Shown here: positions 1 to 64,000 of the stretch, piece by piece
How positions within the stretch are numbered: the first letter of the stretch is position 1
Layout: each line of letters starts with the position of its first letter
DNA from: a virus
Length of the DNA: 64,000 bases
Direction: 5' to 3' (one strand)
Virus record (IMG/VR): IMGVR_UViG_3300017605_000880
Location: 8,978 to 72,977 of that record
Position numbers and translations under genes: made by a program
The notes under the pieces: model-generated
What the model was told of the DNA's origin: nothing
Database searches by the model: none
The model's input: the letters and a program-made list of their open reading frames with translations, nothing else

Positions 1-234
1 TCGAGCGCCCTACGGAAATGGCGCCTGCACATCCCGAACGCGGTCATCGACCCCGGCTGGCGCGGCCCGCTGTTCGTCGGGGTGTGGAACCTCGGCGGGA
101 ACCCCGTCACCGTCAAAGCCGGCGACCGGCTCGGACAGCTGATCCTCATCCCCAACCACCCCGCCCCGATCGAGGTCGTCGCAGCGGTTGAGGACCACCC
201 CCGGGGTTTGAAAGGTTTCGGCTCGAGCGGATGA
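1..234 (+). CDS. dut: trimeric dUTPase-family protein (5' truncated by window)
   Basis: Frame 1 reads SSALRKW...AVIDPGWRGPL...KAGDRLGQL...RGLKGFGSSG*: dUTPase motifs 2-5; stop overlaps the next ATG (ATGA). Confidence 0.85.
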   Translation, partial: SSALRKWRLHIPNAVIDPGWRGPLFVGVWNLGGNPVTVKAGDRLGQLILIPNHPAPIEVVAAVEDHPRGLKGFGSSG

Positions 235-5951: not shown

Positions 5952-6586
5952 ACCGGCCCATCAAGATCCTCACCGCCGCCGTCACAACCGCCGCCATAGT
6001 TGTGACACTGACCGGCTGCTCCAAGACCGAGAACTGGATCGCCGACGCGATGCGCGCGTTGGGCTCCACCCCCGGCACCGTGTACAACTTCGGACCGGAC
6101 GGGCAGCAGGTCTATCAGGCGCACTGCCGCAGCCTGGACTTCGCTCCGGACCACCAGTTCGACGTATATAACGCCAAGGGAGAGAAGACCGGCGACTCAT
6201 CGGTCATCCTGATCTCCTGCGGCGACAACCAGATCCGGACGGTGGGGTTCACCACGGTCTACGTCTCGGACGAGGCCCAGGGGGCTCTGTTCGCCAACTC
6301 GCAGCAGTTCGCCAGCCTGCGGATCCAGAACAACGACCGCAGCATCCCGTTGGTCAACTTTGCGTGGCGGGCGGTTAAGAACCAGTTCGTGGGGACGGCC
6401 GGTGTCGCGCAGGTGTGCGACCAGTGGAACAACCCGATCATGGCTTTCGCGGGGACGATCAACGGGTTCTCCACCGATGTGACGAAGTCGACGATGTTCC
6501 AGGTCAAGTACGGCGACAAGAAAACGGGCTATGTCTGGGTGTCGCGCGGGTCGTACACCGTGACCGACACGGCGCTGCTGGGCTGA
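5948..6586 (+). CDS. lipoprotein, DUF5052-like
   Basis: GTG start after AAGGAG; lipobox LTGC; C-terminus NPIMAFAG...VSRGSYTVTDTALL resembles DUF5052. Confidence 0.65.
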   Translation: MNRPIKILTAAVTTAAIVVTLTGCSKTENWIADAMRALGSTPGTVYNFGPDGQQVYQAHCRSLDFAPDHQFDVYNAKGEKTGDSSVILISCGDNQIRTVGFTTVYVSDEAQGALFANSQQFASLRIQNNDRSIPLVNFAWRAVKNQFVGTAGVAQVCDQWNNPIMAFAGTINGFSTDVTKSTMFQVKYGDKKTGYVWVSRGSYTVTDTALLG

Positions 6587-6648
6587 CGGGGGGGGCAGGG
6601 CGGCGGACGCACCTTGTGTCACACTGGATGTCACGCTAAGATGGTGCC

Positions 6649-7284
6649 GTGGATCTATCGATACGAACCGCCACCGCCGCCCTGACCGCACTCGCCACCC
6701 TCACCCTCACCACCGGGTGTAACACCGACTTCTGGGGCAACCCACAACCCGGCCCCAGCGACGAAGGCACCAGCTGCCCCGTAGGAGAAGGACCCGTGGC
6801 CCCACCCCCGCCATTCGACCCCGCCGCCCAACAGAAGCCCGACGGCGTCACCCCCGGCAACAGCTGGATCGTGTTCGAACTCGAAGTCCGGGCGTTGGAC
6901 GTCGACGGGAACCGCGACTACTGCATCCCGTTCGCCGGGCACGTCTACGCCCGATCCGGCGAAGCCGACACCGTCACCCTCGACGGTGCCGGGCTGCCCG
7001 GCGGGCCGCACGACTTTACCGGGACCACCCCCTGGGCCGGGCGGTACCTCGCGCTGCAGTACAACCCGACCGAGCAGCGGTTCGCCGGCCAACCCCCCGC
7101 CTATGAGGTCCACCTCGACGCGACCTACCTCGCCGATCGGGACGCCCACAACCCGCCCCCGGCGGCGCTGCGCTGTGCGATCCGGCTGCGCGGGGCGACC
7201 GTCGCGCAGGACCTGTCGGTGATCGCCCAGGGCAGCAACGTCCGGTGTGAGCTGCGCAGCAACGACTACTGGATCCACGCATGA
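6649..7284 (+). CDS. lipoprotein of unknown function
   Basis: Hydrophobic signal peptide and lipobox TTGC; Pro-rich linker. Confidence 0.7.
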   Translation: MDLSIRTATAALTALATLTLTTGCNTDFWGNPQPGPSDEGTSCPVGEGPVAPPPPFDPAAQQKPDGVTPGNSWIVFELEVRALDVDGNRDYCIPFAGHVYARSGEADTVTLDGAGLPGGPHDFTGTTPWAGRYLALQYNPTEQRFAGQPPAYEVHLDATYLADRDAHNPPPAALRCAIRLRGATVAQDLSVIAQGSNVRCELRSNDYWIHA

Positions 7285-24266: not shown

Positions 24267-27200
24267 ATGGCGCGACGCCGATACGGGATGCACCCCGGGG
24301 ATGACGACCAACCCCGCTGGCCTGAAGGCACCCCGGTCCGCCCGGACGGGCACGGGCCGGGCGGTGGGCGGTTCCGTGGTACCGGTGATGTCGGCGGGGC
24401 TGATGTTGGCGACCTCGTGTCCGGGCTACAGGGCGCCTCGAGCCGGCCGTGGTACGAGACCGCAGCCGGGCAGATCGCACAGCAACGCGGCGGCGGACAC
24501 CCCCGGGTGGGGTACAACCTGGCTGTGATCAACGCCGCCCAGGCGCAGTACAACGAGAACCGGGGCGACGGGTACAACGACGACCAGCTGCCGCAGCTGA
24601 TCGGGCAGTACAACGTCGCGGAGGCGCAGGGCAACCCGGCTGGGCAGGATGTCGCGGTCGATCAACTCCGGTCGTGGATCGATTCGCACTACCCGGAGCA
24701 GTGGGCTGGCGCTCTGCCGGCGCGGGTGGAGGCCCGGGAGGCGCCCCGGGCGGCGGACCAGGACCAACGCAACCAACGGATCCTGATCCAGGCGTTGGCG
24801 TTCCAGTCGAATATCGAGGCGAACACCGGCGACCCGGACGACGATTTGGCGATCCGGATCGAAGCACTCGAGCGGCATCTCGGGCGGACTGGGCACCGGG
24901 TGGAGGCGGATCGGGAGGCTGCTGCGCTGCGGCAGTACATGGACAGCGAGATGGACCGGGAGGCGGCGCAGAACCCGGTGTTGCGCCGCCAGGCTGGGCA
25001 GGGCGATCTGGGTGAGATCCAACGGCTGCTCGAGCCGGCCGGGCAGTTTGCTGGGCCGCCGTCGGACCACGACCGGAACCTGCGGCTGGTCAACGCGATG
25101 GAAACCCCCGACGGGGGTGAGGTCACCGCCGTTGAACTGCTCGAACTGGTCGGCAACGGGCACCGGCTGGAGGTGTTGGGCCGGCACGGGTGGGATCGGG
25201 TGGAGACGGTCGACGTCTCCGGCGAGGGTGACCATTTCATCTACCTGGAGAACGACCCGGAGCCGATCTCGATGTCGCCGGATAGCCGGCTGGCGATCCG
25301 GTTCCCCCGGCCGAGCAACGTCGACGATGAGTGGCTGCAACAGCACGCCAACCGGCGGGGCCGGGCTGGCGGGGGTCCGCACCCGCTCGGTTGGGACACC
25401 GGAGATGAACCAGCCGGTGAGCCGGAGTTGGACCTCGGTGGGAACCCGGCCACCGACCGCGACGCATGGAACCGACTGGTCGTATATGTTGCCCGTCGTT
25501 CCATGGCCAGCAACCCCCGGAGCCAATTCGACGACGACATCACCAGACACATCATCCGTGACATTGGGCACCCCGATGTCACCGACGTGCAGGGGGTGGC
25601 CGACAGCAACGCCGAAACCCTGGCAGCGCGGTTGCAGCGGCTATATGGGGCCTCGATCATTGACCCACCAACCCGCCGCGCCGAGCCGCAGTTCACTATC
25701 CCCGAGACTGGGGTCATCTCCGCCGCCGAGGACGTGAACCGCGTCCGCCGGGTGACGGGCCAGGCGGAGGACGCCCACCTGACCGACATGCTGCGGGTGG
25801 TGCGGGGTGAACTCCCGGGCGACCCGCATGGCATGGTGGCGGCGATGCGGCAGCGGCTGCAGCAGATCCACGGCGTGGCCGTTCCTGGCGGCGACGAGTT
25901 GGATGTTTTGAGCGACCGCGACCTGCGCGACCTCGGCATCGAATACGACATCGCAGTCCCCGCACCGCCTCTGGCCCCCGACTACCGCGCCGACCTGATC
26001 GCCCGCATCCGCTACCGGCAGCAAGTCGACGCCGCCAACCGCGCAGTCTCACGAGCTGTCGCCCACAGCAACGTCAACTGGGCCGACACCCACATCAGCC
26101 ACCAACGGCCCGGGTTCTATCGCCAAGCGGTTGACGACTACCAGATGCCGTTGCAGATCCGCGACGCGCAGGGCCAGTGGCGTACCGTCACCTCGATCGG
26201 CCACCCGACCAACGGGCAGTACGAGATCATCCACGACGGACCGACCGGCCGCACGTTCGTCCCCGAGAACCACATGATCACCGCCCGGTTCGGGTCGGAC
26301 CGCAGCGGGCCGGACAGTGAGAACCGGCAGCGGTTCAACCAGCAGGTCGCGGTGGTTGCCGAGTCGATGCTCGAGCAGGTGGCTCCGGAGGACCGGGCGG
26401 ACGACGAAGGCTACACCCGGCTGCGCGCCGCGCTCGACAGCTACAACGACACCACCTCCAACCCGGATGACCAGGAGTCGATCGACTCGGCGGTGGACGA
26501 TCTGGTGAACGAACTGGCCGACTGGGATATCTACTTCGACGTCCCGCCGTACCAGGACTACGACAGCGGCGGCAGCAGCTACCTGCCGCCGAGCCGGTAC
26601 AGCGGCGGAGTCTACACCGGGGACGACCAAGAAGACGACTACGAACTGCCCGCAATCCCAGAACTGTACGGTAACGAACGGCTCGCGGACGTGATGGGCC
26701 AATGGCCGACCGACCACAACGAGGATCTGCCGTCCGGGTACGAGGACCGGGCGTCGGAGATCTGGGACTGGCACGACCGGGTCACCGGGTACCGCGCCGA
26801 GGTCATCGGCGTCAGCGCCGACGGCGACGGGCTGTCTGTCGAAGGCCGGGTGTACGACGGGAACAACGAGATCGGGAAGTTCACCCGGACCATCAGTCCC
26901 AGCAGACCGCACCGGATCTACCACGCCTACTTCAAGATGTACGACAACCAGGGCGGAGGGTTCGCCACCCGATGGCTGGACCAGGTTAAACAGCAATACC
27001 GCGACCAGGGGTTCACCGAGATCGGGGTCTCGGCCAACCTGGACGTCGGCGGGTACGCCTGGGCGAAGATGGGGTTCGATTTTGCTTCTCGCGACAGCGC
27101 CCGGCTCACACTCATAGGGATGATGAGCGAGATCACCGGCGCCCACCGGGCAGGCCGGATCGACGACCGGACGCTGCAGGAGGCGCAGGAGCTGCAACGG

Positions 27201-27380
27201 CGGTTCGACGCGGGGGAACACATCACCCCGTTGGAGATCGCGATGGTCGGGTGGCGGTCCCGGGCCGAGTTCGTCGACCTCGAGGATGCACCGGAGGATC
27301 CGAACGGCGACCCGATCGAGATGTGGTGGGGCAAACGGTTCCTGCTGGGCAGGAGTTGGTCAGGAGTGATGCAGCTGTGA
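24267..27380 (+). CDS. large multidomain (polyvalent-type) protein, QPRWP leader, C-terminal GNAT-like domain
   Basis: DQPRWPEGTP...GGGRF; QGGGFATRW...IGVSANLDVGGYAWAKMGFDF. Confidence 0.75.
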   Translation: MARRRYGMHPGDDDQPRWPEGTPVRPDGHGPGGGRFRGTGDVGGADVGDLVSGLQGASSRPWYETAAGQIAQQRGGGHPRVGYNLAVINAAQAQYNENRGDGYNDDQLPQLIGQYNVAEAQGNPAGQDVAVDQLRSWIDSHYPEQWAGALPARVEAREAPRAADQDQRNQRILIQALAFQSNIEANTGDPDDDLAIRIEALERHLGRTGHRVEADREAAALRQYMDSEMDREAAQNPVLRRQAGQGDLGEIQRLLEPAGQFAGPPSDHDRNLRLVNAMETPDGGEVTAVELLELVGNGHRLEVLGRHGWDRVETVDVSGEGDHFIYLENDPEPISMSPDSRLAIRFPRPSNVDDEWLQQHANRRGRAGGGPHPLGWDTGDEPAGEPELDLGGNPATDRDAWNRLVVYVARRSMASNPRSQFDDDITRHIIRDIGHPDVTDVQGVADSNAETLAARLQRLYGASIIDPPTRRAEPQFTIPETGVISAAEDVNRVRRVTGQAEDAHLTDMLRVVRGELPGDPHGMVAAMRQRLQQIHGVAVPGGDELDVLSDRDLRDLGIEYDIAVPAPPLAPDYRADLIARIRYRQQVDAANRAVSRAVAHSNVNWADTHISHQRPGFYRQAVDDYQMPLQIRDAQGQWRTVTSIGHPTNGQYEIIHDGPTGRTFVPENHMITARFGSDRSGPDSENRQRFNQQVAVVAESMLEQVAPEDRADDEGYTRLRAALDSYNDTTSNPDDQESIDSAVDDLVNELADWDIYFDVPPYQDYDSGGSSYLPPSRYSGGVYTGDDQEDDYELPAIPELYGNERLADVMGQWPTDHNEDLPSGYEDRASEIWDWHDRVTGYRAEVIGVSADGDGLSVEGRVYDGNNEIGKFTRTISPSRPHRIYHAYFKMYDNQGGGFATRWLDQVKQQYRDQGFTEIGVSANLDVGGYAWAKMGFDFASRDSARLTLIGMMSEITGAHRAGRIDDRTLQEAQELQRRFDAGEHITPLEIAMVGWRSRAEFVDLEDAPEDPNGDPIEMWWGKRFLLGRSWSGVMQL

Positions 27381-60246: not shown

Positions 60247-61023
60247 ATGAGCAAGATAACCACCAACCCGGTCAGCTACAACGGCGAACCTCGGGCCCTG
60301 CCCGACGTGGTCAGCGAGCACTACACCGCGATCGACGGGGTGGAGGTTATCGCCCGCGAGTTGGCGACCTCACCGCACCCCCGGTGGAAAGACCAACACC
60401 CGCAGACCCACCACTTCGTCACCAAGCTGCTGCTGGCAGACAGCCGTGAGATCTACGAGTGCAACCACTGCCACCTGCACGACCCCGTGTTGAAGTCGGT
60501 CACCGCCCACCAGAGCAAGCACCGGCCCAACCCGCCGCAGCCGTTGACCGACCTGGAGACGTTGAAGACGGTCCTGCGGGAGGTCGAGCGGGCCCGCCGA
60601 CTGTACGGGGTGGGCCGGTACGGTAAGTACGCGGTGGAAGCGCTGACCCGGCTCGGGGTCCGCCCGGCGACCGGCGATGAGTGGACGGTGGCGAAGGTGA
60701 CCAGCCTGTACGGTTCCTACAAGGACCGCTACCCGGTCCGGGCGCCGAAGATCACCCCCCGGTCCAAGCCCAAGCCGACTGCTGCCGCACGGCCGGTGCC
60801 GGCCCCGGCTGTTGCAGCGCCGGCCCCCGGTCAGGCGGTGGTGTCCAGCAGCGACCGGGATCTGATGCAGCTGTTGGTTCAGGTCGACGCCGCGATCCAC
60901 CACGCGATGCGTCTGGTCGCGTCGGTGAACGCCCCGGACGAGCAGATCGTGGAGAAGGCCGCCATGCTGGACCGGCTGGTCGCCGGTCTGGGCGAGGACA
61001 CGATCAACAAACTGCTGGCCTAA
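60247..61023 (+). CDS. hypothetical protein with C2H2-like Zn finger
   Basis: YECNHC...VTAHQSKH; AAGGAG RBS. Confidence 0.65.
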   Translation: MSKITTNPVSYNGEPRALPDVVSEHYTAIDGVEVIARELATSPHPRWKDQHPQTHHFVTKLLLADSREIYECNHCHLHDPVLKSVTAHQSKHRPNPPQPLTDLETLKTVLREVERARRLYGVGRYGKYAVEALTRLGVRPATGDEWTVAKVTSLYGSYKDRYPVRAPKITPRSKPKPTAAARPVPAPAVAAPAPGQAVVSSSDRDLMQLLVQVDAAIHHAMRLVASVNAPDEQIVEKAAMLDRLVAGLGEDTINKLLA

Positions 61024-61397
61024 ACCGCATCCTCCGACACCTCTCTGGCCTCGGCCGGGGGGGTGTCGCTGTGTGTGGGTTCGGTGTTGTCCGCCTCGTC
61101 CCGCTGCTGGTCCTGCTCGCCCTTCGGGGCGCGGATGACCACACAGGTTGCCAGGGTGGCGATCGAGTTAGCGTCGACCGACAGGAACACCGGATCCCCG
61201 GTGCGCATATCGGTTGCCCGGTTGAACACCAGCAGCGTCTTGCCCTGCCGGGCTTCGGACCACGTCCGTGTCATGTACTCGTGGACCTGGTCCTCCTGTG
61301 CGTCCGGGTCGGTGTCGTCGGGCAGTTCCATCGAGTCGACCACCTGCGCGCGGTGTCCGCTGACCAGGGTCATGTCAATCACAAACTCAACCTTCAC
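61020..61397 (-). CDS. hypothetical protein
   Basis: AAGGAGAGG RBS. Confidence 0.55.
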   Translation of the reverse strand: MKVEFVIDMTLVSGHRAQVVDSMELPDDTDPDAQEDQVHEYMTRTWSEARQGKTLLVFNRATDMRTGDPVFLSVDANSIATLATCVVIRAPKGEQDQQRDEADNTEPTHSDTPPAEAREVSEDAV

Positions 61398-62095
61398 GGT
61401 GCCTCTCCTTGTGTCTCCGGCGGTGGGGGGCTATCGACATCCCCCCGTGGGGGTCTCAGTGTCTCCGTGACCAGCGGAAGTACCTTCGCGATACCTTCGG
61501 ACGGCGGCCCGTGCGGGTCCAGTGCTGCCATCCGGGCGACGTTGATGAACAGAGCGCCGGTGGGCAGGCCGTGGCTGCGGACCGGGATGGTGTTGATGAT
61601 CGGACGCCACGCTGCTTCGACTGCTTTCCACACCCCGGGTGATCCGGCGACCCGGATCTGGTCGGTCGGGTTGACTAGCCGTTCCAACGGGTTCGGCTCG
61701 GTGTCCCAGATTGGGCTGTACCCCAGGTCGAGTGTCTCGTACAGCCTGGCGAGGTTGTCTAGTTCGGGTTGGGCTATCGGGTGGGTGACGACGGTGGGCA
61801 GTGGCCGGACCCGGATCGGGCCGGTCGCCAGCTGCATCCATGTCAACGGGTCGGTGGGTTGGCATATGAAGATCAGGTCGCAGTAGTCGGCGAGGGTGTC
61901 GAGCCGGCTGGTGGTGGGGATGGTCCACCGGTCCAGCAGGTCCAGCATCTCCGCGTCGGTGTCGGGTGGGGGTGCCCAGACCATCCCGTGGGGGTGGTAG
62001 GCGACCACGGAGTGGTACCCGTAGTCGCGCATCGCCAACGCGAGCGGGATGCCGCGTTCCCAGTCGAGCCCGATGACCCCGATGCGTTGCCTCAC
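61394..62095 (-). CDS. degenerate nucleotide-sugar dehydrogenase-like (Rossmann) protein
   Basis: RIGVIGL..GIPLALAM, DLIFICQPT resemble the UDP-glucose/GDP-mannose DH N-domain. Confidence 0.5.
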   Translation of the reverse strand: MRQRIGVIGLDWERGIPLALAMRDYGYHSVVAYHPHGMVWAPPPDTDAEMLDLLDRWTIPTTSRLDTLADYCDLIFICQPTDPLTWMQLATGPIRVRPLPTVVTHPIAQPELDNLARLYETLDLGYSPIWDTEPNPLERLVNPTDQIRVAGSPGVWKAVEAAWRPIINTIPVRSHGLPTGALFINVARMAALDPHGPPSEGIAKVLPLVTETLRPPRGDVDSPPPPETQGEAP

Positions 62096-62106
62096 GCTGT
62101 CACCTC

Positions 62107-62283
62107 TCAGATTGCCGATGAGAACCCGGACACGGCCTCGCGTGGGTGTTCGACCTCGCGCACCAGCCGGCGCAGGGTGGCCTCCAACGCTGGGTTGCCG
62201 GCCAGTTCGGGCAGCTTTGAGAGGCGTACGCCGTTCAGGTTGACCACCGGGGTGCAGACGCCCACCGGATCTGGGTTCGTCAC
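62107..62283 (-). CDS. FxSxx-COOH (FxsA-like) peptide
   Basis: AAGGAG RBS; MTNPDPVG...VNLNGVRLSKL...ALEATLRRLVRE...EAVSGFSSAI*. Confidence 0.75.
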   Translation of the reverse strand: MTNPDPVGVCTPVVNLNGVRLSKLPELAGNPALEATLRRLVREVEHPREAVSGFSSAI

Positions 62284-62981
62284 CGGGCGTCTCCTTGTCC
62301 CGGGACCCCGGAGGTGTTCCCGCCGTCGGCATGGTACCGCCAGGTCCGCTCCGCCAGGTGCACCATCTGCTGGTTGTTCCTGACCGCGTACTGCGACAAC
62401 CCGACGATGTGGTACCAATCCTCGTTGCCGTATTTCTGGCTGTCTCCCTGGAACGGGTCGTTGATGAACCCGACCGCCTGGGCGGCGTCGGTCCGGACCA
62501 GGAACGTGATCGTGGTGTGGTGCGGGGTGGCCGGGTTGAACGGGATCCCGAAATGACCTAGCGGGTCGTTGTCCTCGGTCATCCACGGGAATACGAACAT
62601 CGCCCCGGTTGCCTCCGCGACCTCCAGACACCGTTGCAGATGCTGCGGCAGCCACTCGTCGTCCGAATCGCACCACGCCATCCACTCGGTCTGGATCTGG
62701 TCGAGGATCTGCTGGCGGGTCCAGCCGGCGCCCCGGGCGTCGCGGTCGTTCACCACCAGGATCCGGTCGGGTTGGCGGGTCTGGCTGATGATCGACCGCA
62801 GCGCCCGCTCGAGCTTGCCGTTGGTGAACCGGGCAGGATGGGCGGCGACGCAGGCGGTGACGGCACCCGGGATCAAGGTCCGGTCCAGGTAGTGCTCCAG
62901 CGAGTACACCGCTTCGGTCTTGGCCTCGATCGCCTCGGTCACGTCACCGATCAACTCACCCATGCCCGCCTCCATGCTCAT
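62280..62981 (-). CDS. glycosyltransferase family 2
   Basis: RALRSI..QT, GAGWTR, WCDSDDEWLPQHL, NEDW. Confidence 0.85.
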   Translation of the reverse strand: MSMEAGMGELIGDVTEAIEAKTEAVYSLEHYLDRTLIPGAVTACVAAHPARFTNGKLERALRSIISQTRQPDRILVVNDRDARGAGWTRQQILDQIQTEWMAWCDSDDEWLPQHLQRCLEVAEATGAMFVFPWMTEDNDPLGHFGIPFNPATPHHTTITFLVRTDAAQAVGFINDPFQGDSQKYGNEDWYHIVGLSQYAVRNNQQMVHLAERTWRYHADGGNTSGVPGQGDAR

Positions 62982-63654
62982 GTAGAATCCACCAGGTCGC
63001 CCACGGCAGGTCCATATTCCACCGGACCGGCGCCGGCCCCAGCTGCGACAGCCGCAGCAACACCGGCAGCGACAGCTGATCCTGATGCGACCAGTTCACA
63101 CACTCGACCCACCACAGATCCGACAGGGCCAACACCGCCGGGGTGTGGCGTCGTACGTTCGCCCCCGTTGCGATCAACCCCCACCCGCCGGGGTGGAACG
63201 AGCGGTACGCCTCGATCTGCCGCAGCACCGACGCCGGGTCGTACCGCCAGGTCAACGTCGCCGAGTACTCCCCCTCGGTGTAGATGCAGTCCCGCCACGG
63301 GTGGCGCATGCAGGACCAATCGTCCTGGCCGAGGGCTTGCAGGCATTTCTCCGGGTAGTCCGGGAACAGCAGCTGCATCGACCCGTCGATCCACAACGAC
63401 ACGTCCACCCCGGGGCAGGCAAGCTCCGGGTGGGTCTTCCACCATTTGTGCGCCAACATCGGCCCGGTCACGGCCGGGTCGCCGTTCAGGGTGGCGATCC
63501 CGTGCCGGACGATCCGGGGTTCCCACCCGGCGGCGGCTGCCTTCTCCGCCGTCACCTCCGAATCGGTGTACAGGTAGGCGGGGATCCCGAGGAACGGCAA
63601 CGGCTTGACCCAATCGTAGCTGCCGTAAACCGCCGTATATAGGGCGAGGTTCAT
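62956..63654 (-). CDS. glycosyltransferase, DUF616 (TOD1/MUCI70)-like
   Basis: YTAVYGSYD, KTHPE, SLWIDGS, HPWRDCIYTE, DQLSLP. Confidence 0.8.
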   Translation of the reverse strand: MNLALYTAVYGSYDWVKPLPFLGIPAYLYTDSEVTAEKAAAAGWEPRIVRHGIATLNGDPAVTGPMLAHKWWKTHPELACPGVDVSLWIDGSMQLLFPDYPEKCLQALGQDDWSCMRHPWRDCIYTEGEYSATLTWRYDPASVLRQIEAYRSFHPGGWGLIATGANVRRHTPAVLALSDLWWVECVNWSHQDQLSLPVLLRLSQLGPAPVRWNMDLPWATWWILHEHGGGHG

Positions 63655-63938
63655 CGGCCCGCCAGGAACCGTTCGACCGTGGCCGAGTTGCGGTCGGTGT
63701 CGGTCAACGCCGTCTCCCGGGCCACCCTACGCAGCCACACCGCGCCGGACGGGCCGACCGGCCGGTTGACCTCAAGCGCATTGGCGTATTCGATCAGCGA
63801 CTTGACCGACGGCGGGTTCGGGACCAGCTGGACCCCCAGCCACCACAACGCCCGGTTGAGCAGCCTCACAGGAACCCTCCCCGGGCGTGCTGGACGGTGG
63901 CGATCGCCTGCAGGTTGACGTGCAGACGCCAGTTCCAC
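63651..63938 (-). CDS. hypothetical protein (start uncertain)
   Basis: ATGA coupling to the GT gene. Confidence 0.4.
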   Translation of the reverse strand: MELASARQPAGDRHRPARPGRVPVRLLNRALWWLGVQLVPNPPSVKSLIEYANALEVNRPVGPSGAVWLRRVARETALTDTDRNSATVERFLAGR

Positions 63939-64000
63939 TCCGCATCCGCCAACGCGTTGTGCTGGTCTTTCGCAGGCGGCAGGATCCCCTCCGGGTCGAC

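Follow-up and report, generated by a model that had tools for sequence, protein, structure and literature searches.

A phage from soil carries a stand-alone gene for a member of the FxsA (FxSxx-COOH) family of precursor peptides, and with moderate confidence we regard it as a mobile accessory gene that lytic actinophages carry, with a product that would mimic the FxsA of the host and engage the host Fxs machinery, most likely in counter-defence. The gene lies in a stretch of 64,000 nucleotides (hereafter the window), which comprises bases 8978-72977 of a 72,977-bp IMG/VR record (G000) with 67% GC, rated 93% complete. What is new here is the occurrence of an FxsA family member as a stand-alone gene in lytic actinophages. 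In the accessible portions of the literature on Fxs, triceptides and phage-encoded RiPP precursors, we found no description of a phage-encoded FxsA.

Fxs systems have been reported from Actinomycetota (PMC7159879; bioRxiv 10.64898/2026.10.19.760177). According to one review, FxsB catalyses cyclophane formation on its precursor (PMC10114670, citing Nguyen et al. 2020), and the three-residue cyclophane enzymes treated in another include one that joins the C4 of Phe to the C-beta of Ser (PMC11002830). The actinobacterial systems are composed of a zincin-like peptidase, a small FxSxx-COOH protein and a radical SAM/SPASM enzyme (PMC7159879), and such FxSxx-COOH systems are coupled to vWA-MoxR ternary systems and to TIR-AP-ATPases with TPRs (PMC7159879, eLife 2020). 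The bacterial FxSxx precursors are described as rapidly diverging, with a conserved C-terminal peptide (PMC7159879). Among the other components, FxsC has been mapped to an active TIR and FxsT to a ParA-TIR protein, both described as functionally uncharacterised (bioRxiv 10.64898/2026.10.19.760177). The FxsAB peptide has been suggested to be an antiviral molecule or a diffusible alarm (bioRxiv 10.64898/2026.10.19.760177), and the processed peptide is predicted to be a toxin, an antiviral or an alarm that is coupled to TIR/NTPase effectors (PMC7159879, bioRxiv 10.64898/2026.10.19.760177). Chemically, Fxs is known: FxsB turns the bacterial FxsA into a strained three-residue Phe-x-Ser cyclophane. 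Its biology in multicellular actinobacteria is only predicted.

The fxsA-like gene is located at 62107..62283 on the minus strand, where translation and the TIGR04268 match define 58 codons followed by a TGA stop. Its GTG start occupies 62283-62281 and its stop codon 62109-62107. The product of 58 aa ends in ...ALEATLRRLVREVEHPREAVSGFSSAI, with the terminus ...EAVSGFSSAI, and F-x-S-x-x is found directly before the stop (...SGFSSAI, then TGA). Three parts can be distinguished on the minus strand, namely a variable N-terminus (residues 1-28, 62200-62283), the conserved leader end plus core (residues 29-58, 62110-62199) and, within the latter, the core F54-S55-S56-A57-I58-COOH (62110-62124). In being a short ORF that stands alone, with an N-terminus that varies and a C-terminal peptide that is conserved, the gene agrees with the FxsA family and with the description of the bacterial precursors (PMC7159879). 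The ribosome-binding site AAGGAGA, read from the sequence at 62290..62296 (minus strand), sits 6 nt before the GTG and within the 3' end of the upstream family-2 glycosyltransferase (GT2) gene, whose stop overlaps the fxsA start (GTGA); in the relative G001 described below, this site is identical. The layout and the strong ribosome-binding site that had been pointed out in an earlier sequence-only reading of this DNA are thus both confirmed.

That reading had also proposed scoring the peptide against the FxSxx-COOH TIGRFAM, and the match is clear. TIGR04268.1 (NCBIfam, FxSxx-COOH cyclophane-containing RiPP peptide, equivalog) scores 45.3 bits (E 7e-12) against a curated cut-off of 28 bits, with the full profile (1-44 of 44) aligned to residues 14-58. 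When all six frames of the whole record were searched with TIGR04268, fxsA was the single place detected (44.5 bits), and the same search gave a match at E<=0.001 in none of 14 control genomes. A Pfam profile search of the peptide returned no match, nor did PHROGs or PADLOC; the newer Pfam family PF27839 (FxSxx-COOH) is precomputed for the fxsA protein in a large protein collection. In an alignment (A1) of five sequences, F54, S55 and S56 are invariant columns; besides the peptide of the window, it comprises two proteins from metagenomes and, standing for the viral records G001 and G003, their proteins or translated loci. The GC contents at the three codon positions (0.71/0.49/0.81) are like those of the neighbouring genes. 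Outside G000, fxsA is conserved in another four IMG/VR records and another five contigs from metagenomes. On these sequence grounds, the ORF is a real gene for a member of the FxsA (FxSxx-COOH) precursor-peptide family, and its likeness to the actinobacterial FxsA/FxsB systems (TIGR04268/TIGR04269) extends to the leader end, the F-x-S-x-x-COOH terminus and a full-profile score above the cut-off.

The gene is part of a minus-strand operon with the order orf95, TOD1/MUCI70-like, GT2, fxsA, 233-aa protein and orf125. The first operon gene within the window, orf95 (63651..63938, minus strand, 95 aa, GC3 0.79), is conserved in G001 and has no match in Pfam, PHROG or PADLOC. It is followed by a gene for a TOD1/MUCI70-like glycosyltransferase-like protein (62956..63654, minus strand, 232 aa; PF04765 26.9 bits, cut-off 21.4) and by the GT2 gene (62280..62981, minus strand, 233 aa; PF00535 45.7 bits; phrog_14775 glycosyltransferase 107 bits), the product of which is 42-43% identical to glycosyltransferases encoded by Zuko and KimJongPhill, two phages of Streptomyces. 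Immediately downstream of fxsA comes the gene of another 233-aa protein (61394..62095, minus strand), which begins with a GTG 12 nt past the fxsA stop. This protein has no match in Pfam, NCBIfam, PHROG or PADLOC, its best PDB sequence match has an E of 0.28, two close homologues were found, and the AlphaFold model has a pLDDT of 34, which is too low for use. Feature matches of 0.89-0.93 in the protein atlas connect it with UDPG_MGDP_dh clusters, several of them viral, so it is possibly a short UDP-glucose/GDP-mannose-dehydrogenase-like protein, which we take as a lead only. The last operon gene, orf125 (61020..61397, minus strand, 125 aa, GC3 0.85), is likewise conserved in G001 and without a family match in Pfam, PHROG or PADLOC, and it is convergent with a plus-strand gene ending at 61023.

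The element carrying fxsA is a phage, for G000 contains PHROG matches to a large terminase, a portal, a major head protein, a tape measure and a primase/helicase. The virus record ends at window position 64000, which is 62 bases past the last operon ORF. A close relative, G001 (locus L003), is 80,875 bp in length, syntenic with G000, bounded by direct terminal repeats and rated 100% complete; across the fxsA region, the two show roughly 80-95% amino-acid identity. Between the sequences matching both ends of G000, G001 has about 7.8 kb (L003:363-8162), which encodes a GT1-type glycosyltransferase, a class-I methyltransferase, an NAD-dependent epimerase/dehydratase, an Rv2179c-like exonuclease-domain protein and several family-less ORFs. 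It should be noted that the difference in size (80,875 vs 72,977 bp) fits the completeness estimate of 93% for G000. By terminase, the closest cultured phages show 44-47% identity; of the 25 records matched, 14 belong to Streptomyces phages. The host of this soil phage is probably found among Streptomyces-like bacteria.

The serine and tyrosine integrase families PF00239 and PF00589 are absent from G000, G001 and G003. Therefore, fxsA would be expressed and act during infection, not from a prophage, and a role as a lysogenic-conversion gene of a prophage is not supported. As a separate observation, G000 encodes a 435-aa protein (L002:1072-2376, minus strand) with a Gp3-like 'recombination directionality factor-like' domain (135 bits).

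A survey of phages for further copies had been suggested with the sequence-only reading. With the peptide and three alignments as queries, IMG/VR yielded four viral records in addition to G000, each with one fxsA, whose identity to that of G000 is 78% for G001, 61% for G002 and G003, and 53% for G004. G003 is 104,655 bp long, with 60.5% GC over its locus L005, and G004 is a 16.5-kb fragment; together, the fxsA-bearing viral records represent at least three phage lineages. The TIGR04268 scores of the other phage copies are 34.9, 29.7, 29.7 and 24.2 bits, the last of which is below the cut-off of 28. By the patterns used, the frequency is 5 records in 2.9 million IMG/VR contigs, and tblastn of the peptide against 50,697 cultured-phage records gave chance-level matches only (E>=3). 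A scan of metagenomes returned six fxsA loci, one of which is the G003 contig again. The others are L007, a 5.6-kb contig with 95% DNA identity to G000; L009-L011, which are G004-like metagenome contigs; and L012, a 7.5-kb contig with 70% GC that encodes a 94-aa version of the peptide.

None of these viral records brings Fxs partners along. At E<=1, neither TIGR04269 (FxsB) nor PF04055 (radical SAM) has a match in the whole 72,977-bp record, which extends to the full record the earlier observation that no radical SAM gene occurs in the window. In all five viral records (G000, G001, G002, G003 and G004, with one fxsA each), PF04055, TIGR04267 (HExxH zincin-like peptidase/modification domain), PF13676 (TIR), NF040586 (FxsT) and PF13424 (TPR) are each absent at E<=1; among these records, G001 and G003 are each rated 100% complete. 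For the metagenome contigs, a crude check for the motif CxxxCxxC in open frames of at least 100 aa gave none in L007, L009 and L012. It was found in one 236-aa frame common to L010 and L011, whose kindred record G004 has no PF04055 match. Thus, in contrast to the actinobacterial Fxs systems, the fxsA described here is phage-encoded and has no adjacent FxsB, HExxH peptidase, FxsC or FxsT, and the five viral records have none of them at all. The sequence-only reading had allowed for a complete fxs cluster just beyond the window, which would indicate simple host gene capture. With the missing sequence filled in from G001, this is ruled out, since the complete relative has sugar-modification and unknown genes at this place and no radical SAM gene anywhere.

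The genes around fxsA differ among the records, and fxsA is the only gene common to all four contexts. In G002/G003, G004 and L012, it occurs without a glycosyltransferase gene alongside. For example, fxsA of G003 adjoins the genes of an unknown protein of 127 aa and an I36-like protein that is secreted, and a protein with a Ricin-lectin domain is encoded nearby; L012 provides yet another context. Even between the related phages G003 and G004, fxsA is at different positions relative to shared genes. The association of fxsA with glycosyltransferases is specific to the lineage of G000, G001 and L007. Therefore, the earlier statement that the peptide gene is embedded in a glycosyltransferase operon stands for this lineage, where the TOD1/MUCI70-like and PF00535 GT2 genes are upstream, and does not carry over to the other fxsA contexts. 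A peptide and a GT2 as conserved neighbours, as expected for a glycocin-type system, were likewise seen in this lineage only.

These contexts bear on the possibility that the neighbouring phage glycosyltransferases use FxsA as a substrate or cofactor, which would give a glycopeptide or a primer of glycan synthesis. The overlap of the fxsA start with the GT2 stop suggests translational coupling, the core contains serines, and a long sugar operon is present in the complete relative G001 (GT1-type transferase, methyltransferase, epimerase/dehydratase, TOD1-like and GT2). Such an operon has known counterparts. Virion glycosylation is known in mycobacteriophages. A mycobacteriophage announcement links two glycosyltransferases to capsid glycosylation (PMC11256854). 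The operon studied here shares with those of other actinophages a GT2 and a TOD1-like glycosyltransferase, to which G001 adds the GT1-type transferase, the methyltransferase and the epimerase. However, fxsA is found without an adjacent glycosyltransferase in G003/G002, G004 and L012, and the homologous glycosyltransferase-methyltransferase-glycosyltransferase operon of Zuko, which is located at the same genome end as here, as is that of KimJongPhill, has no fxsA in either phage. In Zuko (gp106-108), a glycosyltransferase is 43% identical to that of G000 and the right-end minus-strand position is the same, and still fxsA is missing. Furthermore, in L007 and in a contig of run X2 (where window 62287 marks a loose end), GT2 and fxsA are separated by an additional ORF of about 92 aa, and the GT2 of 233 aa amounts to the catalytic domain only, with no extra peptide-binding part. 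Consequently, the proposal that the adjacent glycosyltransferases act on the peptide has lost ground, also because the fxsA stretch is replaced in another relative (see below), and we consider it very unlikely. This additional ORF (L007:546-823, plus strand) encodes several cysteines and, like GT2 in G000, overlaps the start of fxsA by GTGA.

In that relative, a 6.5-kb soil contig of run X5, both flanks are kept, and window 62088-62278 is replaced by 146 other bases, so that this contig has either a highly divergent allele or no fxsA. As the fxsA stretch is replaced in so close a relative, the gene appears dispensable. Elsewhere in the operon, insertions of 190 or 276 bases occur in relatives at window 62959-62969, the junction of the TOD1-like and GT2 genes, in four soil/rhizosphere runs. 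It seems that insertions are favoured where two genes of this operon meet, and fxsA itself has the look of a gene inserted at such a junction in a glycosyltransferase operon. Based on the varied contexts, the insertions and the replacement, the behaviour of fxsA is that of a small accessory gene which can move and which settles between other genes, at their junctions.

The surroundings of fxsA in G003 and G004 look like an accessory region of secreted proteins. The I36-like protein of G003 has a signal peptide and a weak match to Peptidase-inhibitor-I36 (27 bits), and Ricin-type lectin-domain proteins are encoded near fxsA in both G003 and G004. The genes for the I36-like and lectin-domain proteins are at L005:10179-10646, L005:7269-7820 and L006:13370-13927, all on the plus strand. 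The I36-like protein was also considered as an inhibitor of the host HExxH peptidase. This was rejected, since the secretion signal implies action outside the cell and the match of 27 bits is weak.

Compared with G001, dN/dS is 0.10 for the TOD1-like gene, 0.23 for GT2, 0.42 for the downstream 233-aa gene and 0.58 for the whole of fxsA. The two halves of fxsA behave differently, with dN/dS values, from small counts, of 1.15 for codons 1-28 (11.7 non-synonymous and 4.3 synonymous changes) and 0.23 for codons 29-58. In the comparison with G003, synonymous sites have reached saturation, and still no residue differs in ALEATLRRL and PREAVSGFSSA. In the alignment A1, 26 columns are invariant across the five sequences, including ALE-TLRRL and PREAVSGFSSA. 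The C-terminal half of FxsA is under purifying selection, and its N-terminus varies freely. The gene is therefore very probably a genuine orphan phage fxsA under selection.

By the same data, it is highly improbable that fxsA is passively carried host DNA with no role for the phage. Its rarity among phages and the close relative that has lost or replaced this stretch would agree with such carriage. On the other hand, the gene turns up in no fewer than three phage lineages with differing surroundings, its ribosome-binding site is intact, the C-terminal 12 residues are nearly unchanged where synonymous sites are saturated (vs G003), and no close bacterial donor was found among representative genomes and plasmids, as described next.

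The phage copies stand well apart from what is found in representative bacterial genomes. With HMMER over 1.84 billion representative proteins, 15 were matched at E<=0.001, of which 12 are small FxsA-like peptides (35-102 aa) and three are long proteins that were set aside, two of them being matched in several stretches (4 and 6). A word-indexed search with a profile of 14 sequences returned 34 proteins, of which 32 carry PF27839 and seven are named 'FXSXX-COOH protein' by JGI; the longest contigs carrying these relatives measure 0.65-105 kb. Two scans of 185,579 species-representative bacterial genomes with the C-terminal signature of the phage clade detected no relative, and a search of plasmids for the phage-clade FxsA gave no match. 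Within the reach of these searches, we read the phage FxsA as a clade of its own on the margin of the family, so far found on phage-like or unplaced metagenomic contigs only. Nothing suggests that the phage fxsA was copied recently from a host gene that has been sequenced.

Because the phage clade is distant from the representative bacterial genomes and scores down to 24.2 bits, it could have drifted to a function unrelated to FxsB. FxsA would then act alone, without modification, on a target in the host or the phage that has nothing to do with Fxs, for example as a small helical protein that docks by its free C-terminus, and its ancestry would be history only. The scores of 24-35 bits on TIGR04268 in the other phage records, far from the family centre, are in line with this, as are the lack of a close relative in the 185,579 representative bacterial genomes and of an Fxs partner in any of the five phage records. 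What argues against it is that the strongest constraint is on precisely the parts that define FxsA, namely the leader end and the FxSxx-COOH core, and that the TIGR04268 match spans the full profile. We therefore hold an Fxs-independent role to be unlikely.

The intact leader and core would also be expected if the phage borrowed the host FxsB as a maturase, and the finished cyclophane served as a signal between infected cells or as a weapon against competitors. Phage-encoded signal peptides do exist, such as AimP of the arbitrium system, which resembles the phage FxsA in being a short phage-encoded precursor peptide with the active piece at its C-terminus (PMC12360287). However, AimP carries a secretion signal and shares its operon with AimR, a TPR receptor that the phage encodes, and the phage FxsA has neither: no signal peptide is recognised on FxsA from its sequence, and a phage-encoded TPR-type receptor was not found in the five viral records. 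A further difference from arbitrium is that integrases were not found in G000, G001 and G003, so that there would be no lysis-lysogeny decision to regulate. Taken together, a borrowed FxsB that serves signalling or competition seems quite improbable.

The preferred reading is that the phage peptide is directed at the host Fxs proteins themselves. Selection keeps the leader end and the core, and the phage has no gene to modify or sense the peptide; therefore, in the simplest reading, the peptide is made to be recognised by the Fxs proteins of the host. During infection, the phage would flood the cell with a look-alike of the host FxsA. The host enzymes FxsB or HExxH peptidase, or a TPR sensor as the receptor, would bind this look-alike, which would compete with the host FxsA for FxsB or the peptidase, or else occupy the TPR sensor. 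As the outcome, a peptide-dependent suicide or alarm response of the host would be jammed, silenced or blunted. That the phage FxsA works by engaging or jamming the host Fxs system is something we put forward tentatively, at somewhat less than an even chance. In a more specific form, which is possible but less probable, the virus uses FxsA as a decoy for a RiPP precursor of the host, imitating the peptide that gates or amplifies a TIR/NTPase suicide system of multicellular actinobacteria, and thereby switches this system off or saturates the maturase. We infer that the hosts have an Fxs system, that this system binds or modifies the phage peptide, and that the effect is counter-defence. A mimic or decoy, or a substrate of host FxsB, as proposed in the sequence-only reading, would be consistent with all of the findings.

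Phage mimics of host immunity regulators are known from toxin-antitoxin pairs, where the pseudo-ToxI antitoxin RNA of phage phiTE and Dmd of T4 have been shown experimentally. The likeness concerns the proposed logic only, that is, a virus supplying its own copy of a small host-made controller of abortive infection. The difference is that the function of the host Fxs system is itself only predicted. The fact that several lytic phage lineages keep the precursor alone under purifying selection provides indirect genomic evidence that the peptide matters in the conflict between phage and host, and the phage fxsA offers a simple experimental handle on the Fxs system. If the mimicry is true, a RiPP-precursor decoy would constitute a new class of viral counter-defence and the first such viral case, and orphan precursor peptides in phages would be worth mining. 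If the decoy is true, it would be the first functional evidence that Fxs is antiviral and peptide-controlled.

Some other features of the G000 genome may be mentioned. The largest unassigned ORF seen encodes 1,037 aa at window 24267-27380 (plus strand) and has no PHROG match at E<=0.001. To the left of the window, a PurZ-like gene is located at L002:6152-7102 (plus strand; bases 6152-7102 of G000), which matches phrog_1211, '2-aminooxy adenylosuccinate synthetase', with 222 bits and PF00709 with 99 bits. It is followed by a dUTPase/dCTP-deaminase-like gene (L002:8045-9211), which extends into the window (1-234). Judging from these genes, adenine may be replaced by 2-aminoadenine in this phage (Z genome).
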